Assembly (NCBI GenBank): GCA_963841435.1
Contig: CAWJCS010000005.1
Span: 64,001 to 128,000, forward strand
From: an uncultured delta proteobacterium
GTDB lineage: Bacteria; Myxococcota_A; Polyangia; Polyangiales; Polyangiaceae
Direction of reading: 5' to 3'
Length of the DNA stretch: 64,000 nt
Part shown: piece by piece, positions 47,636 through 63,901 of the stretch
Layout of the letters: each line of letters opens with the position of its first letter
Numbering within the stretch: position 1 is the stretch's first letter
Notes under the pieces: model-generated
The model's database searches: none
Told to the model about the DNA's origin: nothing
The model's input: the letters and a program-made list of their open reading frames with translations, nothing else
Translations under genes and position numbers: made by a program

Positions 47636-47950
47636 GTTCGCGGCGGATCAATTCCCGCGAGCCAAGACTTCGATCGGCATCCGGAGCTTCGAGGCTGAAT
47701 GATCCCGAGGCCGGCGAACGCCAAGAGAATCCTACAGCGCGGCCAAAATGGAGCTTCGAAATCCGCGCGCCAAGAGTCCCGATTTGGGTCGGCCTGCAAT
47801 GTCAGGACATGACCAGGTCGCTCGGTGAATTGGCGCTCCGGACAGAAAGATTCGGAAATCCTCGAAACACCCCGAGGCGACGATGTAGGTGAGTGAGGTA
47901 CGCGCCCATTCTGCCTGTTGCTTTGGCCCGACGCGTGTCATGAAAAAGTA

Positions 47951-48538
47951 ATGTCGATGCCCGCGCCGCGCTCGCTTGGGAACAAGGCGGCGGAGCGCAT
48001 CAGCGAGGCCGGTCCGCGCACCAGGCCGCTCGACATCGAAGATCTGTTTCGACTCCACTCACCCGCCATCGCGTCCGTCGGCCTCGCCATGCTCCAGAGT
48101 GCCGAGGAGGCGGACGATCTGGTCCAGGACGTCTTCGTGCGTGCCTGGCTCGCCATCGATCGACTGGAAGATCGCGAACAGGCGAGACCCTGGCTGATGA
48201 CGATCGCCATCCGGCTCGCGCGGACGCGGCTCAGGCGGCGCAAGCTCACGCGACTGCTTTTTCGCAGCGACGAACCCGACTTCGAGCACATTGCGGCACC
48301 GGGCTCCCTTCCCGAGCATCGAGACCTCGTCAAACGCCTCTACCTGATCCTCGATACGATCCCCGTCGACCTTCGCATCGCCTGGGTGCTGCGCCACGTT
48401 CAGGAAGAGACGGTCCAGAGCGTCGCCGCGCTGTGTGGGTGGTCGCTGTCCACCGCGAAGCGTCGCCTTCAAGCCGCGGAGACGCGCGTGTCCGTCAAGC
48501 TGAGCTTGGCGACCCAGGAACGGAGGCCACTCCCGTGA
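47951..48538 (+). CDS. ECF sigma factor (close paralog of 61010-61612)
   Basis: EADDLVQDVFVRAW, WLMTIA, LCGWSLSTAKRRL. Confidence 0.92.
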   Translation: MSMPAPRSLGNKAAERISEAGPRTRPLDIEDLFRLHSPAIASVGLAMLQSAEEADDLVQDVFVRAWLAIDRLEDREQARPWLMTIAIRLARTRLRRRKLTRLLFRSDEPDFEHIAAPGSLPEHRDLVKRLYLILDTIPVDLRIAWVLRHVQEETVQSVAALCGWSLSTAKRRLQAAETRVSVKLSLATQERRPLP

Positions 48539-49705
48539 CCGAGCTCCCTGTCGAGAAGCACGTCCAGGCAGCGCAACGCGAAATCCGCGTACGGGCCTGG
48601 GACGATGCGCGCGTGAGCTCGGCGTGGCAAGAGCTCGCGGGACGGCGCGCGGACGCGGTCCGGACCCGGCAGCGTGCGACCCAGCTCGGCGCCTCGCTCG
48701 CGCTCGCGGCGGCCATCGCGTTCGCGTTCTTCGGATGGCGCGCGATCCGCCCCCACGCCGCACCCCCCGGCACCGAAACGGCCTCGAACGCGCCCGGCGA
48801 ACGCCGCATCGAGCTCGGTGATGCGACCGACGTGGCATTCGACCCCGGCGCCAACGTCGACGTGCGAGAGCGCACCGGCACGCGAATCGTCGTGGCGGTG
48901 GGCTCCGGGGCGGCGCGTTTTCGCGTGCGGCACGATCCCCGTCGCGTGTTCCGCGTCGAAGCGAGCGGCGTCGAGATTGAAGATTCTCGGCACGACGTTC
49001 GAGGTCGAAAACCTCGGGTCGTCCGTCCGTGTCGCGGTGAGGGAGGGCTCGGTGTCCGTGAGCTTCCGCGAGTCCGAGGGCAGCGTGCGGACCACGAAGG
49101 TGCTCGAAGCCGGCGAGCGTGGCGTCTACCCAGCCAAGGTCGTCCCTGCTCCCGCCGCCGCGGTCGAGCAACCGGCTTCAGTCGAAAGCCCGGAGCCGGC
49201 CCGAACGGCCAACGCAACGCGTCCCGGCGTCGAGGCCGCACCGACGGCGGACTGGCGTGAGCTCAAGCGCGCGGGAAAGCACGCACGAGCCTACGAGCTC
49301 CTGCAGCCCCGTGGTTTCCGCGACGTGCGCGACGAACCGGGAGATTTGTTGCTCGCGTCCGACGTCGCGCGTCTTTCGCATCACCCGGCAGAGGCAGCCA
49401 TGCTGCTGCGCAAGCTCGTGGCGGGGCACTCGCGGGATCCGCGCGCGCCGTCGGCCGCCTTCACGCTCGGCTGGGTGCTCTTCAAGGACCTCGGCCGTCC
49501 GCGCGAAGCCGCCGCTGCTTTCTCGCGCGCCGAAGCACTCGCACCCAGCGGCAATCTGGCTGAGGACGCGCTCGCTCGCGCCATCGAGGCCTTTTACCGG
49601 GCCGGAGACAAGTCGCGCGCCCGGGCGGAGCTCGAGCGTTACGAGCGGACCCACCCGCACGGAAGACACCAGGCATCGCTCGAGCGGCTCGTGGGCACTC
49701 CCTGA
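48535..49705 (+). CDS. FecR-TPR anti-sigma (one +1 frameshift at ~48984)
   Basis: GTGA coupling, TM, FRVRHDP; removing one T restores EDLGTTFEV (paralog DDLGTVFDV) and a 389-aa product, the same length as the paralog. Confidence 0.87.
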
Positions 49706-49812
49706 GAGCACCGCCCCCAGGGGGGCGCTCTGGACGCGGACTTTTCGCGACAAATGCCGTAAACCTACCGAGGGTGCCGGAAGGCCGAGTCGAGGTGCCC
49801 ACCACGAAGATC

Positions 49813-50592
49813 ATGCGCGCGTGTTCCACCTCGAGCCGCACCGCCTGCCATCTGGCCATGTGCACACTTTCGATGGCGCTCGGCGCGTGCGGAGAGACGA
49901 CGATCTCCATCGAAGACCCCGAGCGAGGCCCGGACCTCGACCTCGGGCTACTCGCGTATCTCCGCTTGGACGAGGCCACGGCAGGAGACCAGGCGTTCGA
50001 TTCATCTGGTCACGGCCACGACGGCAGCCCATCTGCGGACCCCCCGGTCCCATCCTCCTCGGTTCCGCCGGTTGGCTTCACGGATCCGCGAAGCCTCAGC
50101 TTCGACGGTCTCGCGCAGCTCGTCGATCTCGGCGGCCCCGCGACCCTCGACGTTGCGGGCAATGTCACTCTCTCGGCGTGGATCCGGCCACGCGCGCTGA
50201 ACGGCTACCGAAATGTCATCGCGCACGGCTTCCGCTGGTCCCCCAATGGCGACCTTTCGCTACGCATCTACGCGGGGGACTACGAGTTTACGGCTTGGGA
50301 CAGCGTGGACCACATGGCGAGCGCGGCGGTTCCCGAAGGCGACGTCAACACGTGGCACCACATCGCCGGCGTCTACGACGGTGAGAGCTACCGGCTCTAC
50401 CGCGACGGCGAGCTTCTCGCCGAGCACGCGGACACCTTCACGCCGATGCAATTCGATGCGCCCTGGGCAATCGGCGGGCGCTCCGCGACCGACCCCTCCG
50501 AAGGCCGCTACTTCGACGGCTTCATCGACGACGTTCGAATCTACGCGCGCGCGTTGTCGGCGGACGAGGTCCGCGCGCTGTTCCGCCGCTGA
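49813..50592 (+). CDS. LamG/concanavalin-like lipoprotein
   Basis: Lipobox LGAC, AYLRLDE, TLSAWI, WHHIAGVYDG, FDGFIDDVRIYARALS. Confidence 0.88.
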   Translation: MRACSTSSRTACHLAMCTLSMALGACGETTISIEDPERGPDLDLGLLAYLRLDEATAGDQAFDSSGHGHDGSPSADPPVPSSSVPPVGFTDPRSLSFDGLAQLVDLGGPATLDVAGNVTLSAWIRPRALNGYRNVIAHGFRWSPNGDLSLRIYAGDYEFTAWDSVDHMASAAVPEGDVNTWHHIAGVYDGESYRLYRDGELLAEHADTFTPMQFDAPWAIGGRSATDPSEGRYFDGFIDDVRIYARALSADEVRALFRR

Positions 50593-50663: not shown

Positions 50664-52106
50664 CTACGCGAGCATCGCGCTGATCTGGCCGCCCGAAAGA
50701 CCGCTCCCACCGAAGCTCTCGTAGGGCCCGCCGTTGTCGGTGCAGCCGACGGCGGTGAGGAGCGTGTTGTGCAGCTTGTTGTTCCCGACGCTCCCCGCGT
50801 TGACGAATTGGCCCTGCTTCAGGTACCCGCCCGCGCTGCCCGCGATGATGATCGGCAAGTTGTTGAAGCTGTGCGAGGGGCCGACCGCCACGTGGCTCGT
50901 CCACAGCGCGAACGCGTTGTCGAGCAGGGGACCGTTCGGCGTCGAGTACTGCTCCCACTTGTCGAGCAAGTACTTGAACGATTCGATGCGCAGCCGGTCG
51001 ATCGCCGCGTGTTGATCGACGGCGCCCGGGATGGCCGCGCCGGACGTACCGTCGCTCTGGATGCGATGGCTGATCCAGTGGAAGCGTTCGAGCAGCTGCC
51101 CGTCGATCGTGTAGCGCGTCGCGTCGGTACCGTCACCGACCTGCAGCGTTGCGACGCGTGTTGCGTTGCAGGAAAACGCAAAGGCGACGAGCTCCATCTG
51201 CAATTTTGCCACGTCCTCGGCCGCGCCGTTCTGACGGAAAGCCTGACCCGTGTTCATCGCCTGGATGGCCTGGACGTCGAGGCCGTCGGCGGAGCATTCG
51301 AGCCCCATCTGCATCATGGTGTTTTCCACGTCGCGAATGGACTGGAAGTGCTGATCGAGCCTATCGCGATCGGCTTGGCTGAGCTCGGGTCGATTGCGCA
51401 GCGAGTTCAGCTCTTCGCGGATCAAGTCGTTGACGCTGTTGCGACGGAGCGCCAGCCGATCGGCCGTGCCGGTGCCACTGCTACCGCCGCTGCCACCCGT
51501 CGTTCCCGATCCAACGAGCCCCACGAGGCGCTGGTAGACGTTGTAGGGATTTCCTTCGGCAGCGCGAACTTGCCCAGGGGCGCTGAAGGAAAGCTTTTCG
51601 TTGATGAAGCCACCCTTCAGCCCCGAATAAAGCGTCAGGGGATCCACGCCCGCGGGGTTGAGCTGCTCTGCGATCACCGTATCGACGGAAACGCTGGACG
51701 CCGTCAACTTGTTGTCCGTCCCATTCGGCTTGGACGCCGTGAGACACTGCACGAGCCCTTGGGCGTGCCCGCAGCCGCCGAGCCCGTACGGGTAGTTCAC
51801 GCCACGGACGATGAGCAGCCTCGCGGCGTGATCGGCGAGGATCCCCGTGCAGCGATCCGCGGCAAATGCCTGCATCGACTCGGTGGTGAGGGGCCCATCG
51901 GCGGTCGGCCAGAACTTTTCCGGATCGCCCCCCGACTTTTGCACGACGCCGCAAGACGTGCAGATGAAGAACGCGAAGCGAGGCGTCTCCGCTTGGGCGA
52001 AGGCCGAGCGTTCCGGCATCCCCTCGAGAAACGGGAGGCCCACGCCGAGCGTTCCCGCGGCCCGCAGGAACGCGCGCCGGTTGACGTGCGGGCGCTTGGG
52101 GCTCAC
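50664..52106 (-). CDS. DUF1552 family Tat-exported protein, copy 2
   Basis: NRRAFLR, LPFLE, DQHFQSIRDVE, AFSCNATRVA, HWISH, LLDN. Confidence 0.9.
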   Translation of the reverse strand: MSPKRPHVNRRAFLRAAGTLGVGLPFLEGMPERSAFAQAETPRFAFFICTSCGVVQKSGGDPEKFWPTADGPLTTESMQAFAADRCTGILADHAARLLIVRGVNYPYGLGGCGHAQGLVQCLTASKPNGTDNKLTASSVSVDTVIAEQLNPAGVDPLTLYSGLKGGFINEKLSFSAPGQVRAAEGNPYNVYQRLVGLVGSGTTGGSGGSSGTGTADRLALRRNSVNDLIREELNSLRNRPELSQADRDRLDQHFQSIRDVENTMMQMGLECSADGLDVQAIQAMNTGQAFRQNGAAEDVAKLQMELVAFAFSCNATRVATLQVGDGTDATRYTIDGQLLERFHWISHRIQSDGTSGAAIPGAVDQHAAIDRLRIESFKYLLDKWEQYSTPNGPLLDNAFALWTSHVAVGPSHSFNNLPIIIAGSAGGYLKQGQFVNAGSVGNNKLHNTLLTAVGCTDNGGPYESFGGSGLSGGQISAMLA

Positions 52107-53869
52107 TTGGCACCTCCCGTCCGGGTGAGAAAGCTCGGCTCTCCGATGACCGCGAGCACGATGTCCTTGATTGAAGCGTGGTCGTTCATGCTCATTCCTT
52201 CGATGCCGTCAACGAGAGCGCGATCACCGCCTGCGATGTCACGCGCCAGCGTGTATTCGGCCAGATGCATGGCGTAACAGCCGTGAACGCTCGGAGCTTC
52301 CGCGAGCAGAGCGGTCAGTCCGGGGGCCCCATCGAACGCGTGCAAGCCGTCCGACAATTCGAGCTCGCTCGAGGTGTCAACCGGCTTGCCGTTGTCGGTC
52401 GTGCGGATCTGGCCGATCGCGTCGAAGTTCTCGAAGGCGAAGCCCACCGGGTTGATGATCGCCCCATGGCAACCCTCGCCGCAGGTTCCCGGGCCCGTGA
52501 ACGCGTTGACGCGCTCGCGATTGGTCTGCCCTGGCGTGATGGTGGGTAAGGGTGGGATCGTGCCGGGCGGCGGCTGGAGCTCGGCGCACATCAAGCGGTT
52601 GATGATGTCAACGCCGCGGTGAATCGGATCCGGATCGTTGAGCGTCGCGTTCAACGAGAGGAAGCCGAGGCGCGTGAGGTAGCCGGGCCGCTCGGGACCG
52701 AGCTGGGTCTCGGTGAGAGCGGACCCGCTTGCCGTGACACCATACAAGGGTGCCGTCGCGGCGTTGACGAACGCGAGCGGCGAAGTCAGGAGCTCCCGCA
52801 CGCCCTGGCCAGCGGCGAAGATGCGATCGAAGAACATCTGATCGGCTAGTTGGAAGTCCGCATTGAGCGCCTGGGTGTAGTTGGGGAAGGCGGTGCGGTT
52901 CTTCTCGATCTGGGCGTAGCGATCGAGGCCCAAAAGCTCGGCGTGATAGCGGCCCAAGGTCGCCTGCCCGGCTGGCTCGGCGAGCATCGCCGTGGCTCGC
53001 GCGAGCACGCCGGCGGTCGTGTCGAGCTCCCCGGCGGCGGCCGCGTCGAGGAGCGCGTCGTCCGGAATGGTGTCGCGCAAAAGGAAGGAGAGCTTCGACG
53101 CCATCTCGTAGCCACCGAGCGGCGCGCCGTCGGTACCGAGCTCCATGCGGTAGAGGAAGTTCGGTGATTGCAGCATGCCCTCGACAATCATGTGCACCCC
53201 GTCCGCGAAGGCGTTGCCGCTCGCGACGAGCGTCACACCGGAATCGAAGACGGTCTGGTACCGCTGCTCTTCGGCGGCCGTCAGCGGGCGGCGGAAGGCC
53301 CTACGTCCGAACGTGCGAATGAACGTCGCCGAATCGGAGACGCCACCCGTGACCCGTGCGAGCGCCTGCGCATCGCCGGCAATCTGGTCAGCCAGCGTCT
53401 CGGCGGCACGCTGATAGTCGAGGCGCAGATCGGAGCTCACGAACAGCGCACGCTCGTTGTTCGAGAACGTGCCGTTCGGAGGATCCGGCGCGAAGCCTTG
53501 GGACAGCCCGGGAGTCGCGGAAAGGCCGAGCAGGTCGCGAACGCTCGCCTCCCATTGCGAAGCCGTCAGGCGAACGAAGCGAAAATAGTCGGGCGTGCCG
53601 GCGAGATCGATCCCCGAGCTCGTCGTACCCCCGGTCCCACCGAGCCCCGTGCCAGCGGAGCCCGCCGCAGCACCCGAGCTGCCCCCCGTGGCACCGGTTC
53701 CACCCGCCACCTGCGTCGTCCCGGCGCTGCCGCCCGTTCCCACGCCGCTCGAGGCGCCGCTGCCGGGCCCGCCCGCCTGTCCCCCGTCGATCGTCGCCGT
53801 GCAACCGAGGGCAAGCGCCAAAGGCAACAGCAGCAATCCGACGCGACGACCCGAGGTTGGTTTCGACAT
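52103..53869 (-). CDS. DUF1592-family lipoprotein, copy 2 (CX3CH)
   Basis: Lipobox ALGC, FGRRAFRRPL, QSPNFLYR, EMASKLSF, DPIHRG, CGEGCH, FENFDAIG. Confidence 0.9.
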   Translation of the reverse strand: MSKPTSGRRVGLLLLPLALALGCTATIDGGQAGGPGSGASSGVGTGGSAGTTQVAGGTGATGGSSGAAAGSAGTGLGGTGGTTSSGIDLAGTPDYFRFVRLTASQWEASVRDLLGLSATPGLSQGFAPDPPNGTFSNNERALFVSSDLRLDYQRAAETLADQIAGDAQALARVTGGVSDSATFIRTFGRRAFRRPLTAAEEQRYQTVFDSGVTLVASGNAFADGVHMIVEGMLQSPNFLYRMELGTDGAPLGGYEMASKLSFLLRDTIPDDALLDAAAAGELDTTAGVLARATAMLAEPAGQATLGRYHAELLGLDRYAQIEKNRTAFPNYTQALNADFQLADQMFFDRIFAAGQGVRELLTSPLAFVNAATAPLYGVTASGSALTETQLGPERPGYLTRLGFLSLNATLNDPDPIHRGVDIINRLMCAELQPPPGTIPPLPTITPGQTNRERVNAFTGPGTCGEGCHGAIINPVGFAFENFDAIGQIRTTDNGKPVDTSSELELSDGLHAFDGAPGLTALLAEAPSVHGCYAMHLAEYTLARDIAGGDRALVDGIEGMSMNDHASIKDIVLAVIGEPSFLTRTGGAK

Positions 53870-54173
53870 AGTCACCTGATTGGCTCCCGGCATCGATGTC
53901 CGCTCGAGCGGAACGTTTGGTTCTCGAGAGAGGAGGAGTCCGATGCTCCAACTATAAAGGGAGGCTTCGTCGCCCAAGCGCGCTCACAAATAAACCTTCG
54001 GTATCATTGAAAAAATGAGTACGGATTCGCTTCTCGTTGAATCCCGAACTGAGTCGTCCGTGGCCGTCCGATCACCGACCTTCGACTACGTCGGACGACA
54101 TCCACCCACCCGCTTCGGATCGTTCGGGCGAGCGTTTCGGCGGCCGAGCGGACCGTCGAGGCGCTCCCGAACG

Positions 54174-54737
54174 TCACTGGCTCGCGCCGTCGTTCATGCA
54201 CTGGGCGAGCGCGGGGTCGCGGCTCGCGAGATTCTTGAAGCGCGTTCGTGCTCTCGACAGGCGGCGCCGCACCGTGATGACGGAGCAGCCGGCCGCGGCT
54301 GCCATGGTGCCGAGCGTCGCGGGGCTGAACCAGTACGTCGCGAGGAGGGCGCGATCGGGAGGCGGCAACCGATTCATGACGCGAATGGCGCGCGACGCGA
54401 GGTCTCGCTCGTCGGTCTCGATCTGGAACGACGGCCGTAGCTGCTCCGGCACGGTCTCGAGCGAGGCGTGCCGACGATGGCGTCGGTGCCGCATCGTGCT
54501 CCTCAGGGTGTTCATCGTCACTTGGGCCACCCAGGCGTCGAGGCAAGCCGGATCGCGCAGCGTTTCGACGCCACGAATGACCGACATCAGCACTTCCTGC
54601 ACCAGATCCTCGTGCTCGTCGTCCTGACCGAGGACGGCCTTGACGTGGCGCGCGATCTTCTTGGCGTAGCGAGCATGCAGGTGCTCGGCCGTCAGCACGG
54701 CTTCGATCTGGGGGGGGTTGACGAGGGCGGCGGACAT
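54174..54737 (-). CDS. Orphan ECF sigma factor
   Basis: HEDLVQEVLM, WVAQVTMN, GCSVITVRRRLSRAR; no adjacent anti-sigma. Confidence 0.85.
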   Translation of the reverse strand: MSAALVNPPQIEAVLTAEHLHARYAKKIARHVKAVLGQDDEHEDLVQEVLMSVIRGVETLRDPACLDAWVAQVTMNTLRSTMRHRRHRRHASLETVPEQLRPSFQIETDERDLASRAIRVMNRLPPPDRALLATYWFSPATLGTMAAAAGCSVITVRRRLSRARTRFKNLASRDPALAQCMNDGASQ

Positions 54738-55088
54738 CTCGTGACTAGCTCCCTGCAGCGCTGTTCCCGCAGCACGCAATTAGCAGGCCGTTCATCCGCG
54801 ATCCTTCGCGGTCTTGCGAGCGCTCGACATCAGATTTCACGACGTGCATGACTCCGCGTGTGGAAACGTCGCTCTTAACCTATTCCCGGCTAGCGACGCA
54901 CTGATCTGCAATGTCTCGCGAACGCCTCGACGCGTTCCGAGCGGCACGTCGATCGAAATCCGCATTTCGTGTTGACTCGATCCGCTCACGGACCGCCGCG
55001 ACACGACGAGACGCTTCTCCCTGAGGGCGACGCGTTTGGCGTCGGTGCCGGCGGAACGATGCGGACGCGACTGAAGCTGCACCAATGA

Positions 55089-55119
55089 TACCCACGCGCG
55101 AGGGCCCAAGAACGGTCCA
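55089..55119 (-). promoter_or_regulatory. Candidate ECF promoter TGGACCG-N15-GCGT
   Basis: Same bipartite spacing as three other sites; about 350 bp upstream of the orphan sigma. Confidence 0.45.
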
Positions 55120-55261
55120 CGAAAATGTCCCTGGTGCGGAGCACGCCGGATCTGGATCGCGAATATTCGTCTTTGCGTCAGGGACGCACACACGTCAGCC
55201 GCCGCCCCGCTCCGGCCACGTCGGCTGGTGGGCGTCGATTTTTGGCTCGAAAGGGCTCGGC

Positions 55262-56645
55262 TCAGGCCTGGATGCCGGGCAACGCCGCCGTGACGCGTCC
55301 GCCGTCGAGACCGAGCTCGGTCTGCGTCGAGCCCATGATCTGCGCGGCCGTGAGGAGCGCTCGGCTCAGGTTCTCACCCGGAAAGTTGAAGTGCTCGTCG
55401 CCGCGTAGCCGGCCAGCTGCCTTCCCCGCGAGGAGCACCGGCCACTCCTCCTTCGTGTGCGTCTTACCCCAGGCGGTGTCGGAGGTGACGTAAACGAGCG
55501 TGTCGTCGAGCAGGGTCGAGCTACCGTGCGGAGTGTTCTTGAGGTTCACCAAGAATTCGTTCAGGCACTTCATCGCGTAGAGAACGCCGGTGTCGACGCG
55601 AGGCTGATTGGATTGATCTCCGGCGTCACCGTGACAGATGGTGTCGTGGAAATCGTCGTTCATGTTCGATGCGAGGTGCCGGTAGTACACGTGCGCCGCG
55701 GGTAGCGAGAACATGAACGTGGCGACGCGCGTCTTCTCGCAGGCGAGGGCGAGCGTCGTGAGCTCGGCCATGGCGGAGTTCACGGCAGGGGGAGCCTCGC
55801 TCTTCGAATCGGGGCCGACGCCGGGAGCCATCGCGCTGCCGCACGCCGCTGGCAGCGTGCCGCCCGTCGTGGGCATCGTGTCGAGGCGCAGCTCGATGGC
55901 TCGGATCGCCTCGAGGTGCTGCTCCACGCGCGCCTTGTCGGCGGCTCCGAGGCGCTGCTCGAGACTCGCGCCGTCCTCGAGAATGGCATCGAGCACGCTC
56001 TTTCGGACTCTCGCAAGCTTGGCGGCGGGATCGTCCGTACCCGTCGTGGGAGGGGGCGTGCTGCCACCCGTGAACAAGCGATTGAACACGGCCTTTGGAT
56101 CGAACTCGGGGTTCAGACGCGCGTTCGGCCCACGGTGCGACACGGTGTGCAGCGAGTCCGGATTGCCGTTCGGCGTGGCAGGCGTCACGCCCACCTCGAG
56201 CGAGCGGTAGGGCGCCCCCGTGGAAATGAGAATCCGCGACGACCTGATCGATGGACGCAGCTCGGACGGCGTTGCCGTTGAGCGGCGCGCCGGTCGTGGC
56301 CGCCGCCGACCCCGTCGGATGCTCGTTCCCGGAAACCACGAGCTTGCCCTGGAGTCCCGAGAGCACGGTGAGGTACGACTTGACCTCCACGAGCGGCTGG
56401 AGCTGTGGGCTGAGCTGCCACGCCGATCCGGAGCCCGTGCTGGTCGGCTTCCAGAGACCGGGGAGCGAGCCGTTCCCGAAGAACCAGGTCACGAACAGCG
56501 GCGTGAGGGCCGTGTTCGTCTGCGCGAGCGCCGTGCCGTTCTCGTTCAACATGGCATCCAAGAGCGGGAGCGGAATGGTGACGGCGGCACCCGTCGCAAG
56601 CATGCCCCGAAGAACGGTGCGTCGGTCCAAAGCTTTGATCGTCAT
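55262..56645 (-). CDS. DUF1552 family Tat-exported protein, copy 3 (one +1 frameshift at ~56231)
   Basis: DRRTVLR, SIDQVVAD; removing one base restores LISTGAPYRSLEVGV; ALACEKTRVA, HDTICH, TLLDDT; 460 aa corrected. Confidence 0.88.
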
Positions 56646-56662
56646 CGAAATTGCCGTTCGGA

Positions 56663-58546
56663 CTAGGGTTGCGGTGCGACGGAGGAGAACGCGTCGCTCG
56701 TCACTATGTCGAGCACGAGGTCGCGCAGCTGGAAGCCAGACGCCTGGAACGATGCGGCGAGGTCGTTCACGACGCTGCCGTCGACGTCGCGTTCCTCGTA
56801 GCCGAGCGCGTAGGAGTAGTACTTCCGGACCATGCACTGAGCGACCTCGAGGCTCGAGGCGACCGCGAAGCCCAGCTCACGAGCGTCGGCCACCGGCTGC
56901 CCCTCGAAGTCGCCGCTCGGGTCGATGGGCAAGCCGTGGTCGGTCGTGCGATAGCGGCCAATCGCATCGAAGGACTCGAGCGGCAGCCCCAGAGGGTCCA
57001 TCATCGAATGACAGCCCGCGCACGTGGGGTTTGAGCGGTGCATCTCGAGCTGCTGGCGCTTCGTCATGGGCTGGTCAACGGGCGGGTCCTCGAGCACGGG
57101 GACGTTGCCGGGGGGCGGCTCGACGGGCGTGCACAGGAGCGCCTCACGGATGAACTTGCCGCGCAACGTGGGGGACCCAGCCTTCTGGTTCGCAAACGCG
57201 GAGGCGAAGCCTGCCTTGCTGAGCAGGCCCAGGCGCGGGCCGTCCGCCGGCAACGAGCGCACGGCGAAGGTGCTCGCGGTGAGACCCGTCGTGTCGATGC
57301 CGTAAAGCTGCGCAAGGTCGAGGTTGACGACGACCTTCGGGGTCGAAAAAACGTCCATCGCGCTCGTGCGGTCGTCGAACGCGAGGACCTCCCACACGTC
57401 TCGCATGTCGCGGACCATCGCGGCCTGCAGCGCAGGGCCGTATTCCGCGAAGAGCGACGCGTCCTTGGCCTGCGTCGCGATGCGATCGAGCCGCAGGTAC
57501 TCCTCGGCGAAGGCGCCGACGGACTCGCGCCCCGCCGGCGCCTCGAGCAGCCGCGCGGCGGCGTTTCGAATGCCATCGGGCGTCGCAAGAGCACCGCTCG
57601 CGGCCTCGTCGAGCAGCGTTTCGTCGGCCAGGCTGTTCCACACGAGGAACGCCAGCCTCGACGCCGTCTCGTAGCCCGTGAAGCGCAGCGCCCCGCCCGT
57701 GCTCGGGGCTCCGAGCTCCGCGCGATAGAGGAAGTTCGGCGACGTGAAAAGCTCCACCGTCGCCCAGCGTACCCCCTCGATGGCACTCCCGAGCTCGGAC
57801 GTGGCGTTCTCGGCGACCGCCATGAGTCGGTCGACCTCGGCCGTTTCGAGTGGGCGCCGCCACGCGCGACGCCCCATGGACTGGACGAATCCACGGACGC
57901 ACGCGTCGTTCGTGCCGGTGCCCGGCGTGCAGCCGATGAACGCGGCTTGCCTGGCCGCGTCCGCCAACACGGTGTCCACGGCGCTCTCGATGGCGGTGTG
58001 GTACTGCTCGACGCCCCGCTCGGACGTGACGACGGTCGAGGCGCCGATGACGGCAAAATTCCCGTTGTAGCTGTCGGTGTCGAGCTCGCTCGTGTCGACA
58101 TCGACACCGAACACGTCGCGCACGGCGTTGCGGAACTGATTTCGCGTCAGCCGGCGCAGCAATCCCGGCGCGGCCTGGAAGGGCGGAGGGTTTTGATAGA
58201 CGGGCGGCGCGCCAGCCGTCGCGCCCGTGCCGGCAGAGCCCGTCGCTCCACTTCCACCACCGCTCGCTGCGCCGGACCCCGCCGAGCCCGCGGGCCCGGT
58301 ACCGCCTTGACCGGGTGCGCCCCCGGCTGCGCCCGCTCCGCTCGCGGACGCTCCCGCGGCGCTGCCGGCACCGCTGCCGGCAGGAGTGGTCCCATCCCCG
58401 CCCGACGACGCACCATCGACGGTGCCCGTGCACCCGATCCCCAAGAGGCACGCCGCCATGCCGGCCAGGCCGCGTGAGGGCCGCCCGCGGGAATCGAGCG
58501 TGATCCGACCCGCAACGCCGGGTCGGTCGGAGCTGTCCGTCACCAT
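56663..58546 (-). CDS. DUF1592-family heme-c lipoprotein, copy 3
   Basis: Lipobox GIGC, LRRLTRNQF, SPNFLYR, ETASRLAFLVW, SPTLRG, CAGCH, ESFDAIG. Confidence 0.9.
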   Translation of the reverse strand: MVTDSSDRPGVAGRITLDSRGRPSRGLAGMAACLLGIGCTGTVDGASSGGDGTTPAGSGAGSAAGASASGAGAAGGAPGQGGTGPAGSAGSGAASGGGSGATGSAGTGATAGAPPVYQNPPPFQAAPGLLRRLTRNQFRNAVRDVFGVDVDTSELDTDSYNGNFAVIGASTVVTSERGVEQYHTAIESAVDTVLADAARQAAFIGCTPGTGTNDACVRGFVQSMGRRAWRRPLETAEVDRLMAVAENATSELGSAIEGVRWATVELFTSPNFLYRAELGAPSTGGALRFTGYETASRLAFLVWNSLADETLLDEAASGALATPDGIRNAAARLLEAPAGRESVGAFAEEYLRLDRIATQAKDASLFAEYGPALQAAMVRDMRDVWEVLAFDDRTSAMDVFSTPKVVVNLDLAQLYGIDTTGLTASTFAVRSLPADGPRLGLLSKAGFASAFANQKAGSPTLRGKFIREALLCTPVEPPPGNVPVLEDPPVDQPMTKRQQLEMHRSNPTCAGCHSMMDPLGLPLESFDAIGRYRTTDHGLPIDPSGDFEGQPVADARELGFAVASSLEVAQCMVRKYYSYALGYEERDVDGSVVNDLAASFQASGFQLRDLVLDIVTSDAFSSVAPQP

Positions 58547-58551
58547 GCACG

Positions 58552-58585
58552 TTCACACTCCGGCGGGGGTCAAAACGGTCCAAAA
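58552..58585 (-). promoter_or_regulatory. Candidate ECF promoter TTTTGGACCG-N15-GAGTGTGAA
   Basis: Immediately upstream of the DUF1592 start; both boxes nearly identical to 59670-59703. Confidence 0.65.
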
Positions 58586-58653
58586 ATGCGCCACGAGGCC
58601 CCAGAGGGGCCCGTGGGGCGGCCCCCCGACGGAGAAAGCGCCCCGGGACGAGC

Positions 58654-59661
58654 TCAGAATCGCGCCGCTACGCCTAGGGCGCTCGAAAGCATCATCCCGC
58701 GCGCGCCCGAAATCGCCCGCCCGTTGTCGCGAATCTGGATCGAGTGGAGGGCACCGCCCACGGCGGCGCGGAACGTGGCGGAAAATGGGCCTGACAGGGC
58801 GACGAAGGCCGTCGTCGTCCCCGCGACGCTCACGACGCCTGCATCGCCGCCCCCATAGCTTGCGCCAGCGCCCGAGACCGCGGTGTAGCGCAGCCAGTCC
58901 CCTCCGAGCCTCGCGCCAAACGATACCCCCGCGCGGCGCCAGCCCGGCGTGGCGTCGAGAGCAAGGCCCACGCCGGAGGCCAGCCCGTATCCCGATAGCT
59001 TCCCGCTCGCGAGCGCGGTGGAGCGGGTCTTTCTGCCTCCGAGCTCGAGCTCCGCGATCAGAAAGCGGCCAAGGTGAACGCGGCCACTTAGATCGGCACC
59101 AAAAAGCAGCTCCCCGCCCGTCCAGCCCGAGGCGATCGCATGGGCGCCGACCTCGACGCGCCACGAAGGAGGCGCCGGCTCGACGCGCGCGGGCTCTTCG
59201 AGCGGAGTCGGCTCCGGGGGCGGGGCAACGCTCGGAGCGCTTGGCTCGGACGCCTGCTCGAGGTCGACGCGACGAATGAGCTCCGCAATGGCGAGCGCGA
59301 GCTCGCGCGCCTTGGCATCACGATCCTTGCCCCCGGAAGCGCTGAGATCGATGCCGCGCACGGTGACGCGACCGCGCGCCCGGTCCGTGAGGCGAACCTC
59401 TTGACCCTCGGCGGCACACGCCACGGCAACGTCCAGCCTTTCGAGCGCCGTGCGCCCGTGCCAGGTGCCAAGCTCGATCTCGACCAGGCGTCGGACCTCT
59501 TCGGTGTCGACCTGGACGCACGGGTCGATGGTGATCGGCGGCGGCAACGCCGCCTCGGCTCCCGTGGCGAGGAGCAAGACCGAGAGCGCGATCACGACGC
59601 CCCGGCCCTCCGCCGGCCGGACACGGCGCAGGCGAGGACGTGACCACTTTGCGGACACCAA
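58654..59661 (-). CDS. Hypothetical exported protein with possible small beta-barrel; ECF module partner
   Basis: Signal peptide ending AEA, Cys pair, helical ARELALAIAEL segment, Pro linker, amphipathic strands, terminal Phe (GVAARF). Confidence 0.7.
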   Translation of the reverse strand: MVSAKWSRPRLRRVRPAEGRGVVIALSVLLLATGAEAALPPPITIDPCVQVDTEEVRRLVEIELGTWHGRTALERLDVAVACAAEGQEVRLTDRARGRVTVRGIDLSASGGKDRDAKARELALAIAELIRRVDLEQASEPSAPSVAPPPEPTPLEEPARVEPAPPSWRVEVGAHAIASGWTGGELLFGADLSGRVHLGRFLIAELELGGRKTRSTALASGKLSGYGLASGVGLALDATPGWRRAGVSFGARLGGDWLRYTAVSGAGASYGGGDAGVVSVAGTTTAFVALSGPFSATFRAAVGGALHSIQIRDNGRAISGARGMMLSSALGVAARF

Positions 59662-59669
59662 TCCCTGAT

Positions 59670-59703
59670 TTCATACTCGCGAGCTAGAAGAGTCGGTTCA
59701 AAA
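59670..59703 (-). promoter_or_regulatory. Candidate ECF promoter TTTTGAACCG-N15-GAGTATGAA
   Basis: Matches 58552-58585 in both boxes with an unrelated spacer of identical length. Confidence 0.65.
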
Positions 59704-59843
59704 TAACGACGGCGGGCGCCAGCGCCCGGAGCGTCTCGGAGGTCCGTGGCGCTTTCGACGGGCGTGGCAAAGCGCCGGCCCGGCCGCCGGGCTCGGGCGT
59801 CCGCTGACACGCCCTCGCTAGGTCTTTGCCTGGGAGCGGAAGG

Positions 59844-61013
59844 TCACGGACGCCCGACCAGGCGCTCGAGCATCGCAAGGTGCCTGCCTTGCGGGTAGCT
59901 TCTGCGGTAGCGCTCGACCTCGACGCTCGCGCGCGAAAGCTCGCCCGCGCGATACCAGGCCTCCACCGTGCGTGCCACGGCGTCCTCGGCAAGGTTTCCT
60001 CGTGGTGCGAGCGCCTCCGCCTTCGCGAAAGCGAGCGCAGACTCGCGCGGCCTCCCGAGCTCGTTCATGAGCACCCAGCCGAGCGTGAACGCGGCCGACG
60101 GAGCCCGGGGGTCACTCGCGTGGCCGACGAGCATCTTGCGCAGTAGCTTGGCTGCCTCGTCCGGATGACCCGACAAGCGCGCGACGTCGGACGCGAGAAG
60201 CAAGTCGCCCGGCTCGTCGCGAACGTCGCTGAACGCCGCGGGAACCAACAGCTCGAAGGCACGCCGATGCTTCCCGGCGCGCGCGAGCTCGCGCCAATCA
60301 GAGGAAGACGCCTGCTCGGCGGCGACCCGCGTCGCTTCCTTGCTCGACGCGACGCGCGACGCCTCCCCTGCCTTGGGGAGCGCTTGGTCGGAGACGACCG
60401 CGGAGGAGGCGACGGCCGCATAGGTCCCGCTCTCGCCACCGCGAAGCGTCGCGGTCTCGAGCGCCCCTCCCTCACCAGGAAATGAAACCGCGACGGAGCC
60501 TTCGGTCACGGCGACGCGCACGACGTCGCCCTGCTTTTCAACGTCGAAGACGGTACCGAGATCGTCGACCTCGACTTCGGCCGCTCGCACGCGAAAAAGG
60601 CGGTGTGGATCGTGTCGAACTCGAAAGTGCGCGCTGCCCGCAGCGACCCCGACGACGACGAGCGAGTCGGTCTGCTCGCGAACCTCGACGCTCGAGCCGC
60701 GGGTGAAGCGCATCTCCGTGCCGTCGCCGAGTGAGACGCGCTCCAAGCCGGCTGCGACCGCCCGGGGCTCGTTCGCCGTCGGCAGAGCAGCGGGCTTCAG
60801 CGCGCGGAAGGCAACGATCATCAGCCCGAACGCGGCGGCGAAGGCCAGCGCGGCTCGGCCGACCGTCATCCCGCGCCGCAGCGAGGGTCGAGCGCCGGGC
60901 CTCTTGCGCAAGAGCTCGAGCCACGCGTCTTCGACGCGACGGGCGTCCCATGCGCGCATTTGCAACTGGCGCTTGAGCGCCTCGATGTGCTCGTTCATGG
61001 TGAGCTCGCTCAT
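59844..61013 (-). CDS. FecR-TPR anti-sigma factor
   Basis: TM, LGDGT, FRVRHDP, DDLGTVFDV, VTEGSV; TPR tail DPRAPSAAFTLG...YPQGRH. Confidence 0.88.
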   Translation of the reverse strand: MSELTMNEHIEALKRQLQMRAWDARRVEDAWLELLRKRPGARPSLRRGMTVGRAALAFAAAFGLMIVAFRALKPAALPTANEPRAVAAGLERVSLGDGTEMRFTRGSSVEVREQTDSLVVVGVAAGSAHFRVRHDPHRLFRVRAAEVEVDDLGTVFDVEKQGDVVRVAVTEGSVAVSFPGEGGALETATLRGGESGTYAAVASSAVVSDQALPKAGEASRVASSKEATRVAAEQASSSDWRELARAGKHRRAFELLVPAAFSDVRDEPGDLLLASDVARLSGHPDEAAKLLRKMLVGHASDPRAPSAAFTLGWVLMNELGRPRESALAFAKAEALAPRGNLAEDAVARTVEAWYRAGELSRASVEVERYRRSYPQGRHLAMLERLVGRP

Positions 61014-61612
61014 GACTTATTCTCCACCTCGCGCGTGATGGCCGAGAGCCCGCGGGCAACGCGCCCGTCCGCCGCTTGGATGCGCCGTTTCGCGGTCGAG
61101 AGCGACCACCCGCAGAGCTTGGCCACGCTCTGCACCGTCTCCTCCTGAACGTGGCGAAGCACCCAGGCGATGCGCAGCTCGACGGGAATCTTGTCGAGAA
61201 TCCCGTAGAGCTTGTTCACCATCTCTCGATGCTCGGGGAGAACACTCGGCGCTGCGATCCGGTCGAACTCCGGCTCGTCCATCCGAAACAGGAGCCGCGT
61301 GAGTCTCCTGCGACGCAGGCGCGTACGCGCCAGCCGAATCGCAATCGTCATCAGCCACGGCCGTGCCCCCTCTCGATCTTCCAGTCGTTCGAGAGCGCGC
61401 CAGGCCCGGACGAAAACGTCTTGAACCAGATCGTCGGCTTCCTCGACGCTCTGAAGCATCGCCACTCCGAGGGATGCGATGGCCGGCGCGTGCCGGCGAA
61501 ACAGCTCCTCGATGCCGAGCGGATAGCCTGGCGCGGGGGGGGTCCTGGCGGGCTCCCCCGCGTCGACCAGGTGCGGGCGCCGCATGGCCACAGGCATGAC
61601 GAGCAGATACAT
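61010..61612 (-). CDS. ECF sigma factor
   Basis: EADDLVQDVFVRAW, WLMTIA, LCGWSLSTAKRRI; ATGA-coupled to the FecR gene. Confidence 0.92.
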   Translation of the reverse strand: MYLLVMPVAMRRPHLVDAGEPARTPPAPGYPLGIEELFRRHAPAIASLGVAMLQSVEEADDLVQDVFVRAWRALERLEDREGARPWLMTIAIRLARTRLRRRRLTRLLFRMDEPEFDRIAAPSVLPEHREMVNKLYGILDKIPVELRIAWVLRHVQEETVQSVAKLCGWSLSTAKRRIQAADGRVARGLSAITREVENKS

Positions 61613-61643
61613 ACAAAACGCTTCAGCCGGAAAAAGTGGCTCA
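61613..61643 (-). promoter_or_regulatory. Candidate autoregulatory ECF promoter TGAGCCA-N15-GCGT
   Basis: Directly upstream of the sigma ATG, same spacing as the other sites. Confidence 0.5.
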
Positions 61644-62113
61644 GAAAAGAAAAGGGCCAGGTTTCCGTCTCACGTTGGGCTTGATCGCAAGACCGCTCGA
61701 CGCCGCCACTCGGAGAGCACGCCGCAGCGAAACAGAAGCGACCAGCGATTCGACTTCAGACGTTCCCGACTTCGCGTTTGCGTCGCATGCGTAAGGGTGT
61801 CCACTCGGCGAAGCAACATCCGAGTCTCTGGCTTCGTGTTTGCGTCGAGTGACGAGCGCTGTTGCTCAACGCGCCAAACAGTTGACAACGCGCGCGTTCC
61901 CCGTCGCGCGAGCTTCGATCGTTCGAAGAAGATCGTTCAAGCGGCATGTAGCAGCATGTAAGCAAGCGCGGCTCGTACCCAGCGACGACGAATCTGTCGT
62001 GAGCGATTTCCACGTGCGAGCAATTGTTGAAGCTTGCTGCGAAAGCGCTTCAGCAACAGAAAAACAAACGAGCGCACGCCTCGTCGGCTTGCATCAGTAC
62101 TCGGTGTGATATC

Positions 62114-63901
62114 ATGATGAACATCAGCATGAGCACATACCTAGGAGTGAGGCGGTTGCTTCCGCCCCTCGTGGTGCTCGCGGCGACGGTCGGGTGCACT
62201 GCGACGATCTCGGGCAACGGCGCCGGAGACGGCGATGGCAACACCGGCAGCGGCGCGGGCCCGAGTGGATCGGGCGGATCCAGCGCCGGTTCGTCCGGCA
62301 CGGGCGGCAGCGTGGCGACCGGTGGGAGCGGGGGCACGGGCGGCGCCACTGGCGGCAGCACGGCCAGCGGAGGCACCGGCGGCGGCGTTCCGTCGGAGGT
62401 GCCGGAAGTCAGCATGGATGGCGCGCCCATCTACAGTCGGCTGCTGCGCCTGACCAACGATCAATACGGCCACAGCGTCGACGACCTCCTCAAGGTCGCA
62501 GCGCCTACGGGGCTCGCTGACGGCTTCTTGCATTCGGTGTCCGGCACCACGGACTTCGACAACAACGAGCGCGTCGTATTCGTGAACAGCACTGCGTGGA
62601 GTGATTTCCAACTCGCCGCCGAGAGCGCCGCTTCGCTGGTCACGGCAACGGACGCGGACCTGCAGCGCGTCGCCGCGACGACCGACGGCACGACGTTCAT
62701 CAAGACGTTCGGTCGCCGCGCCTTCCGCCGTGACCTAACCGACGCCGAGGTGGCGACCTACAAGGCGCTCTTCGACACGGGCCCGACGTACACCGGCACC
62801 CAGAGCGACTTCACCAAGGGCGCCGGGCTCGTGATCACGGCGATGCTTCAGTCGCCGAACTTCCTCTACCGCATGGAGATGGGCGACCCGGGCACGCCGC
62901 TCACTGGCTACGAGATGGCGGCCAAGCTCTCGCTCTGGATTCGCGACACGACGCCCACCGACCAGATGCTCGACACCGCCAAGAGCGGAGGCTTCGACAC
63001 GCCCGACGCGGCGGCGAGCCAAGCCGCCCAGATGCTCGACGAGCCGGCGGCCATGGCCACCATGCGGAAGTTCCACGGCGAACTCTACAAGATCGAGGTC
63101 CTGGACACGATCACGAAGACGGGCGTCCAGGGCTACAGCGACGCGCTCATCCCCGAGTTCAAGGAAGCCTCCTACCAGTACTTCGATCGCATCTTCTCGC
63201 AGAACCTCGGGATCGCCGACATGCTCACGTCGACCGTGGGCTTTGCCGGCCCACTGATGGCAGCGGTGTACGGCGTCACCTTGACGGGCAGCGGGATCCA
63301 GCAGGTCAACCTGCCGGATCGCGCAGGCTTCTACTCGCAGGCGCCGTTCCTCACGCTCTGGGCCATCAACAACGCGCCGGATTCGATTCACCGAGGCGTG
63401 CGCATCAACCTCGACACGCTGTGCCGCGATCCCGGCCTCCCCAACGCCGTGCTTCCGTCCGTCCCGGCGCTCGAGCCCGGTCAAACCAACCGCCAACGCT
63501 ACGACGCCCTCACCAAGGAGTGCGGCGCCTCCTGCCACGGACAGATCATCAACCCCGTCGGGTTCGCGTTCGAAAACTTCGACGGGCTCGGTCGCTACCG
63601 CGACACGGACAACGGGCAGCCCGTTGACTCGACCGGAACCTACACGTTCGTCGAGGGCACGCTCGACTACTCGGGCTCCACGGAGCTCATGCAGCTCATC
63701 GCGAGCGGCGTTCAGGCACACCAATGCTACGCAAAGAAAGTCGCAAGCTACGCCATGGAGCGTGACATCGTCGCAACCGAGCGGCCGCTCATCGAGTCGC
63801 TCGGACAAACGAGCCTAACTACGGGCGCGTCGCTCAAGGAGCTGATGGTGGCTCTCGTCAAGAACGATGCGTTCCGTACGCACGTCGGAGGTGCCCCGTG
63901 A
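62114..63901 (+). CDS. DUF1592-family lipoprotein, copy 4 (CX3CH)
   Basis: Lipobox TVGC, LLRLTNDQY, FGRRAFRR, QSPNFLYR, SIHRG, CGASCH, FENFDGLG; start 62114-62129. Confidence 0.9.
   Translation: MMNISMSTYLGVRRLLPPLVVLAATVGCTATISGNGAGDGDGNTGSGAGPSGSGGSSAGSSGTGGSVATGGSGGTGGATGGSTASGGTGGGVPSEVPEVSMDGAPIYSRLLRLTNDQYGHSVDDLLKVAAPTGLADGFLHSVSGTTDFDNNERVVFVNSTAWSDFQLAAESAASLVTATDADLQRVAATTDGTTFIKTFGRRAFRRDLTDAEVATYKALFDTGPTYTGTQSDFTKGAGLVITAMLQSPNFLYRMEMGDPGTPLTGYEMAAKLSLWIRDTTPTDQMLDTAKSGGFDTPDAAASQAAQMLDEPAAMATMRKFHGELYKIEVLDTITKTGVQGYSDALIPEFKEASYQYFDRIFSQNLGIADMLTSTVGFAGPLMAAVYGVTLTGSGIQQVNLPDRAGFYSQAPFLTLWAINNAPDSIHRGVRINLDTLCRDPGLPNAVLPSVPALEPGQTNRQRYDALTKECGASCHGQIINPVGFAFENFDGLGRYRDTDNGQPVDSTGTYTFVEGTLDYSGSTELMQLIASGVQAHQCYAKKVASYAMERDIVATERPLIESLGQTSLTTGASLKELMVALVKNDAFRTHVGGAP

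Follow-up and report, generated by a model that had tools for sequence, protein, structure and literature searches.

A conserved two-part box predicted to be an ECF-type promoter at a locus of sigma factor and DUF1592/DUF1552 genes in an uncultured Polyangiaceae bacterium

Gene pairs encoding a PSCyt/PSD-type (DUF1592 family) protein and a DUF1552 protein are found in Planctomycetes and Verrucomicrobia, and we know of no function for these pairs. Among the literature matches listed for DUF1592 and DUF1552, judged by title and the start of the abstract, none dealt with their regulation. Here, we analyze a 64,000-nucleotide (nt) stretch of DNA, henceforth termed the window, from an uncultured delta proteobacterium of the Polyangiaceae (assembly GCA_963841435.1, contig CAWJCS010000005.1, positions 64,001 to 128,000). 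It corresponds to G000:C5:64001-128000, G000 being our label for this genome (7.78 Mb, 68.7% G+C) and C5 that for the contig. Genes for extracytoplasmic function (ECF) sigma factors stand beside DUF1592/DUF1552 pairs in this window, and a preliminary description had noted a shared motif, TGRRCCR-N15-GMGT, upstream of four co-oriented units, which it took for an ECF regulon. Comparison with related genomes suggests that the conserved layout of this element, i.e., a T-rich tract, TG[A/G][A/G]CC, a fixed 15-nt spacer, and NNGT, most likely represents an ECF-type promoter.

The sigma factor at the center of the locus, sigma1 (Table 1), comprises 200 amino acids (aa) with regions 2 and 4 and no Pfam match for region 1.2 or region 3, which is the size and domain content of group 4 (ECF) sigma factors. 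Translation probably starts at ATG 61597, because the resulting N-terminus, MPVAMRRPHLV, aligns with MSLPLPRPHLV of the orthologues. The adjoining gene overlaps the sigma1 stop codon and encodes a FecR domain (Pfam) and one hydrophobic span, the latter read from its sequence, in line with a co-transcribed membrane anti-sigma factor predicted to bind sigma1. No Pfam family matched the 335-aa protein encoded next. Its AlphaFold model (predicted local distance difference test score, pLDDT, of 80.8) places strands with pLDDT >90 at residues 169-334, and the best Foldseek matches in the PDB are the OmpA transmembrane domain 1bxw (E 4e-7), Ail, OmpX, and OmpW, which bears out the label "barrel-like" given to this gene in the preliminary description. 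The DUF1552 gene of pair 1 changes frame between 56232 and 56227; both frames are 80% identical to an intact paralogue at G000:C2:486791-488128 (tblastn), and the break reflects a fault in the assembly or else a gene that became a pseudogene very recently. A search of 54000-62200 returned no Rfam match (E<=0.1).

Table 1. Predicted promoter sites and genes of the locus, in window coordinates.
Feature	Position	Strand	Description
Site 1	58557..58588	-	CATTTT-TGGACCG-N15-GAGT(GTGAA); TGGACCG 58582-58576, GAGT 58560-58557; 10 nt before ATG 58546 (DUF1592 gene)
Site 2	59675..59706	-	TTATTT-TGAACCG-N15-GAGT(ATGAA); TGAACCG 59700-59694, GAGT 59678-59675; 13 nt before TTG start of barrel gene
Site 3	61618..61649	-	CTTTTC-TGAGCCA-N15-GCGT; TGAGCCA 61643-61637, GCGT 61621-61618; predicted self-activating sigma1 promoter
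Site 4	55094..55125	-	TTTTCG-TGGACCG-N15-GCGT; TGGACCG 55119-55113, GCGT 55097-55094; weaker candidate promoter towards sigma3
Sigma1, ECF sigma factor	61010..61612	-	Pfam Sigma70_r2 (3.2e-17) and Sigma70_r4_2 (8e-05, below curated cut-off)
Anti-sigma factor	59844..61013	-	Short N-terminal part, one hydrophobic span, FecR domain, C-terminal tetratricopeptide (TPR) repeats; Pfam FecR 1.9e-12, weak TPR_19/YfiO
Outer-membrane protein, 335 aa	58654..59661	-	Signal peptide, N-terminal alpha/beta domain, C-terminal small beta-barrel ending in Phe
DUF1592-family lipoprotein (pair 1)	56663..58546	-	Pfam PSD3, PSD5, PSD4, PSCyt3, PSD2; CAGCH (CxxCH) at residue 509; lipobox-type N-terminus
DUF1552 (HXXSHH) protein (pair 1)	55262..56645	-	Twin-arginine N-terminus; Pfam matches in two frames
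Sigma3, ECF sigma factor ("orphan")	54174..54779	-	Pfam; no adjoining anti-sigma gene; region 4 differs from that of sigma1
Second DUF1592/DUF1552 pair (pair 2)	52103-53869 and 50664-52106	-	Pfam; follows sigma3
Third DUF1592/DUF1552 pair (pair 3)	from 62114	+	Divergent from sigma1
Sigma2, sigma1 paralogue	47951..48538	+	78% identity to sigma1 over residues 29-195; 69% over full-length alignment
Anti-sigma2 (FecR/TPR type)	48535..49705	+	Found in two frames by tblastn; Pfam TPR matches
LamG-domain lipoprotein	49873..50592	+	Pfam Laminin_G_3 3.1e-29; last gene of sigma2 cluster

The preliminary description had placed four intergenic boxes on the minus strand, with spacers of unrelated sequence and constant length. 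Inspection of that strand and a pattern search returned all four at the same coordinates, each between open reading frames (ORFs) with Pfam support, with conserved boxes and sequence-unrelated spacers of N15 throughout. A T-rich tract precedes each site, sites 1 and 2 additionally have TTTT before the -35 box and GAGT[G/A]TGAA at the -10 box in common, and no longer repeat was found to embed the four sites. TGRRCCR-N15-GMGT occurs exactly four times in the window, within 6.5 kb and on one strand, compared with a mean of 0.88 in shuffled versions of the window; four or more matches were reached by 1 of 100 shuffles.

The box upstream of sigma1 is conserved among its homologues. For each of 30 genomes in the genus, we took the top homologue of sigma1, the window's own gene included, and searched the 150 nt upstream on the sense strand. 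The control consisted of 3522 upstream regions of G000, with gene starts set by a crude in-house codon-usage caller. TGAGCC was present upstream of 21/30 sigma homologues versus 237/3522 controls, and TG[AG][AG]CC upstream of 26/30 versus 634/3522, the 30 genomes being relatives rather than independent samples, with most sigmas only ~40% identical and upstream DNA that is otherwise unalignable. Among the eight closest sigmas, five keep the N15 spacing with plausible geometry. The closest orthologue, in G065, is preceded by a perfect TTTTCG-TGAACCG-N15-GAGT; the corresponding elements read TGAACCA-N15-GGGT in G063, TGAGCCT-N15-CGGT in G004, and TGAGCCA-N15-CGGT in G010. A two-part motif with fixed spacer that is conserved in front of the sigma gene itself points to a self-activating promoter. 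The homologue tallies and one control row of the DUF1592 orthologue test described below include the unpublished genome G033, on which no key claim depends. As a separate observation, GGCTCA followed after ~13-23 nt by TGAGCC occurs upstream of sigma paralogues at loci L035, L040, L041, L047, and L049, i.e., with an inverted copy of the -35 box, and TGAGCC lies on the antisense strand in 10/30 sigma upstream regions; the inverted GGCTCA/TGAGCC arrangement may be an operator overlapping the promoter.

A matrix derived from other genomes gave a second line of evidence. It contains 17 positions (six T-rich positions, the seven-base box, and four positions of the -10 element), was built from six sites (two each in G065 and G004, one each in G010 and G063), and was run over all 15,567,458 positions of G000; a matrix built from the window's own sites is circular and was not used as evidence. 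Site 2 ranked third (score 21.3) and sites 3 and 1 seventh and eighth (19.4 each), in a test that was not fully blind, as the training sites had been found with the window-derived pattern, the T-rich positions lying outside that pattern. At the true spacing, nine positions scored >=19, versus 0, 6, 2, 5, 4, and 1 when the -10 block was displaced by -3 to +3 nt, an excess that would accommodate roughly six genuine sites in G000. A further match in the window, TGAACCT-N15-ACGG-T at 55523-55554 (-) with a score of 17.0, falls inside the DUF1552 coding sequence and is most likely a chance match, because the codons are conserved with those of the paralogue.

We found the box in front of DUF1592/DUF1552 pairs beside sigma1-type cassettes in further genomes. 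In G065, the sigma, anti-sigma, barrel, and LamG genes form one tight operon, and the divergent pair is preceded by TGAACCG-N15-AAGT, 9 nt before a GTG that opens a lipoprotein signal peptide. The divergent pair of G004 has TGAACCG-N15-GGGT, likewise 9 nt before GTG. Counting pair 1 of the window, the comparison supports a predicted sigma-to-DUF1592/DUF1552 link that recurs in three genomes. Within G000, a score of >=19 is attained upstream of only 2/37 DUF1592-family genes, namely those of pair 1 and of a pair at C2:467 kb, and the box is therefore not a generic DUF1592 promoter. The second of these belongs to a divergent region at C2:469 kb that holds matrix ranks 2, 4, and 17, with sites at 469254 (-), 469453 (-), and 469544 (+) (L078 ~5255-5545). 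These sites point at a DUF1592/DUF1552/418-aa operon and at a TIM-barrel/GFO-IDH-MocA/ThuA operon; the 10-kb stretch annotated around them (C2:464000-474000) contains no sigma gene. At C2:484 kb, a close paralogue of pair 1 (identities of 69% and 80%) carries TGAACCG-N15-GAGC (score 13.1), with a distant sigma/FecR-TPR cassette of its own following it. Pair 2 of the window has no box in front of it. We also considered whether the DUF1592 genes with the box are those bearing CxxCH (4/4 versus 0/2), an idea that was dropped because CxxCH is present in 31/37 members of the DUF1592 family in G000 anyway.

The position of the boxes relative to the coding sequences is in keeping with promoters. The T of the -10 box lies 9-10 nt before the start codon in three DUF1592 genes, 13 nt in the barrel gene, and 18-20 nt in the sigma genes (18 in G065, 19 in G004 and in G010, and 20 in sigma1 when counted from ATG 61597); with the alternative sigma1 start at ATG 61612, the distance at site 3 would be only 5 nt. 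Transcription from ECF promoters usually starts 5-8 nt after the -10 element. With the -10 box this close to the start codon, the DUF1592 messages would consequently be leaderless or nearly so, and mRNAs from these sites should, judging from the spacing, be leaderless or have very short leaders.

Taken together, these results suggest that the four sites are probably ECF-class promoters read by RNA polymerase with sigma1, and that its paralogue sigma2 very likely reads them too. A number of observations weigh against this reading, in addition to the incomplete blinding of the matrix test. At the level of the pattern, TGRRCCR-N15-GMGT shows no genome-wide excess in G000 (63 matches at N15, 57-103 at spacers N10-N21), and one-mismatch variants in the window occur at chance (10 observed, 7.8 expected). 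Against a reversed-pattern control, there is no excess in G065 (14 vs 15) or G013 (8 vs 7), and only a weak one in G004 (15 vs 8). The motif is more frequent in the window than in shuffled window sequence, and is not enriched across the genome. Since the loose pattern lacks this enrichment and its one-mismatch variants are at chance level, it is clustering, position, and comparative data that carry the case rather than the degenerate pattern by itself. At the level of the genes, starts were called by the crude in-house caller, and two sigma1-type sigmas lack a clean box (TGGGCCG-N15-AGCG in G013, GGAGCTG-N15-CACT at L102). L102 does hold a strong box, TGAACCG-N15-GAGTGT at 3304-3329 (-) with a score of 18.4, which points away from any recognizable gene: it lies 100 nt upstream of the sigma orthologue in the opposite direction and faces a LamG gene on the plus strand, entering it at its 3' end, with no DUF1592 remnant downstream.

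The same caution applies to the target genes. Six DUF1592 pairs beside sigma1-type cassettes were examined: three have the box (G000 pair 1, G065, and G004), and two, window pair 3 (62114) and the L102 DUF1592 gene, have none. The sixth, the G013 pair upstream of sigma, has a variant with one mismatch, CGAACCA-N15-GAGTGTG, 19 nt before its ATG, which fails in the matrix (score 3.8). None of 19 upstream regions of pair-1 DUF1592 orthologues from other genomes, where the gene is not beside the sigma (one of them, L065, from G033), reaches even a score of 12. Judged by these orthologues, the box is not a general feature of the pair-1 DUF1592 lineage and does not travel with it. Finally, on the evidence of matching recognition segments in sigma2 (see below), the sigma at 61010-61612 cannot be named as the sole reader of the boxes. 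The proposal that the motif ties this sigma directly to a DUF1592/DUF1552 operon accordingly holds in part: the box stands at the pair in G065 and G004 and site 1 ranks eighth in G000, and, on the other side, sigma2 may read the same boxes and the 19 orthologues are without the box.

Site 4 is the least secure of the four. Its matrix score of 13.7 is reached by 114 positions of G000, i.e., background level, and it lies 356 nt upstream of the likely sigma3 ATG at 54737, or 315 nt from the first possible start, TTG 54779. Its extended -35 element (ATTTTCGTG[G/A]ACCGTT) matches the G065 sigma promoter at 15/16 bases. With place, strand, and this match in its favor, site 4 is a weaker candidate promoter that its sequence alone does not distinguish from background. 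Of the four proposed units, ECF-type boxes at sites 1-3 are backed by comparison, and site 4 does precede the "orphan" sigma in location and strand, yet at a considerable distance and with a background score in the genome-wide search. No sigma gene remnant was detected downstream of site 4 (best tblastn E 0.02 over 19 residues). Close homologues of sigma3, which is itself followed by the second DUF1592/DUF1552 pair, were found only in G013, in varied contexts and with no shared upstream box. Between the sigma1 orthologue and the DUF1552 gene of G013 lies a fragment of a sigma3-like gene that covers its C-terminal half only (L021 4985-5400, minus strand; one in-frame TGA, 54% identity), and the gene order there is a circular permutation of that in the window.

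Which sigma reads the boxes is a question raised by a second cluster at 47951-50592 (+), paralogous to the sigma1 operon and absent from the preliminary description. ECF sigma factors read the -35 element with region 4.2 and the -10 element with region 2. In our alignment, CGWSLSTAKRRI in region 4.2 is common to sigma1, sigma2, and the G013, G065, and L102 orthologues, and a region 2 segment is near-identical in the same five proteins (consensus ARPWLMTIAIRLARTRLRRRKL, 0-2 substitutions each). Since these segments match, both sigma1 and sigma2 would be expected to recognize identical boxes. The frame of the anti-sigma2 gene is broken between ~48986 and 49056; should this break be genuine, nothing would restrain sigma2, which could then hold the common promoters in the on state. 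One might accordingly suppose that the boxes are promoters of the right class that are read mainly by sigma2 (47951-48538) or another paralogue of the family, which would make the physical link to sigma1 misleading. Besides the shared recognition segments and the frame break, which would free sigma2 from its regulator, such a scenario could draw on the at least five sigmas of the sigma1 family in G000 (E<=1e-20) and on the strong boxes at C2:469 kb (ranks 2, 4, and 17), far from sigma1. We nevertheless regard it as unlikely: the boxes of G065 and G004 adjoin a single local sigma1-type cassette, the box upstream of sigma1 itself ranks seventh in the matrix scan, and the more distant paralogues, sigma3 and the C2 sigma, differ from sigma1 in both the region 4.2 and the region 2 segments and thus have different recognition helices. 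Upstream of sigma2 itself, TGGCCCG-N15-AAGT at 47924-47949 abuts the ATG, a poor geometry. The LamG-type gene that closes the sigma2 cluster also ends the orthologous cassettes in G013, G065, and L102.

An alternative of another kind is that the boxes are no promoters, and act instead as operator sites of another regulator or as terminator-plus-spacer modules. Predicted G+C-rich hairpins (58586-58656, 59704-59790, and 55126-55190, minus strand) end directly at the T-tract before the -35 box of sites 1, 2, and 4, giving these regions a terminator-then-promoter look, and a terminator scan flags 59721-59707, the only one flagged. However, the hairpins do not outdo shuffled sequence in fold energy (z -0.50, -1.10, and +0.27), and the box also occurs in the divergent regions of G065 and G004, where no co-directional upstream gene needs a terminator. 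The inverted GGCTCA box in 10/30 sigma upstream regions hints at a palindromic operator in some paralogues, whereas the two-part layout, the strict 15-nt spacer of variable sequence, the fixed orientation towards the gene, and the fixed distance to the start codon fit a sigma-type promoter, so that an operator or terminator function seems quite improbable. That the match arose by chance, as the 63 genome matches of the degenerate pattern without excess at N15 might suggest, or that the sites are ordinary housekeeping sigma-70 promoters, is very improbable given four intergenic matches in 6.5 kb on one strand, ranks of 3, 7, and 8 for three of them with an independent matrix, no sigma-70-like promoter in a promoter scan of 54000-62200, and the 20-nt spacer that would result from reading TTGGAC/TTGAAC and TGTGAA/TATGAA as hexamers.

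Returning to ECF-type promoters read by sigma1, a regulatory circuit can be proposed. The membrane-bound FecR-TPR anti-sigma factor would hold sigma1 inactive until an envelope signal releases it, and the co-encoded OmpA-like outer-membrane barrel protein may take part in sensing that signal. Free sigma1 would then activate its own operon from site 3, the barrel gene from site 2, and the operon of the DUF1592 CxxCH-lipoprotein and the DUF1552 protein from site 1, and it may also start a transcript towards sigma3 from site 4. The FecI/FecR/FecA system is organized along comparable lines: it combines an ECF sigma with a single-pass regulator bearing a FecR domain and with an outer-membrane protein, all encoded together and acting on local targets, the outer-membrane partner being a 22-stranded TonB-dependent transducer with an N-terminal signaling domain and the purpose iron uptake. 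The window likewise groups an ECF sigma, a regulator of the FecR type, and a predicted outer-membrane protein, with predicted targets close by. In contrast to FecA, however, the partner here is a predicted small OmpA/OmpX-like barrel with an N-terminal domain, the anti-sigma factor carries TPR repeats, and the targets are not iron-uptake genes. We tentatively consider a wider version of this circuit possible, in which sigma, FecR-TPR anti-sigma, and OmpA-like barrel would form a cell-surface signaling system without a TonB-dependent receptor. Its regulon would extend beyond the window, covering the local CxxCH-lipoprotein/DUF1552 pair as well as a further such pair and the divergent TIM-barrel/GFO/IDH/MocA/ThuA sugar-oxidoreductase-type operon at C2:469 kb, and its messages would be largely leaderless. 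As in the pairs of Planctomycetes and Verrucomicrobia, the two-gene unit of the window consists of a PSD/PSCyt CxxCH lipoprotein followed by a DUF1552 protein with a twin-arginine translocation (Tat) signal; it differs in that a subset, 2/37 DUF1592-family genes of G000, lies under a predicted ECF-type promoter. Given the abundance of these genes (37 in G000), a sigma/promoter pair for a specific subset would offer an experimental entry to the regulon and its signal, and the wider circuit, if true, would for the first time make the widespread DUF1592/DUF1552 pairs accessible from the side of their regulation. In other respects, this is a routine self-activating ECF circuit.

Among described ECF groups, the cassette resembles ECF267, reported from Sorangium and Chondromyces, which is characterized in its group description by an ECF sigma, an anti-sigma at +1 that joins a FecR-like part to TPR repeats, no FecA-like or other TonB-dependent receptor, promoter motifs given as not conserved, and one to three protein kinases encoded in the neighborhood (Casas-Pastor et al. 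2021, PMC7826278). The window shares the FecR-like anti-sigma with TPR repeats at +1, a likeness drawn from that description rather than from a group model, and no TonB-dependent receptor is found among the annotated genes between 47951 and 64000. No kinase domain was detected in the 14 window proteins scanned, genes further away lying outside the scan. In contrast to motifs described as not conserved in ECF267, the sigma1 family has a box conserved across the genus, which suggests that the wording of that group description reflects a sampling limit. The box itself resembles promoters of the actinobacterial group ECF17 (SigL, SigU), for which the same source gives -35 TGAACC, -10 CGT, and self-activation (PMC7826278). 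This resemblance is confined to the motif: the anti-sigmas of ECF17, as described there, are different, the fourth base of the window box varies between A and G, and its -10 element reads G[A/C]GT or NNGT.

Two further observations concern sequences outside the locus. Distant homologues of the barrel protein (L004, L006, L007, L016, and L017) have a conserved TGTTAnnnT ~9-11 nt before their GTG/ATG, reminiscent of an extended -10 element, within the short interval that follows the TPR anti-sigma gene, a promoter type unlike that of site 2. Two pattern matches in G000, at C2:4242 and C5:909639 (-), were set aside as chance, as their GAGT overlaps an AAGGAG ribosome-binding site; they are two identical copies in front of a 123-aa ORF and probably represent a repeated, possibly mobile, element.

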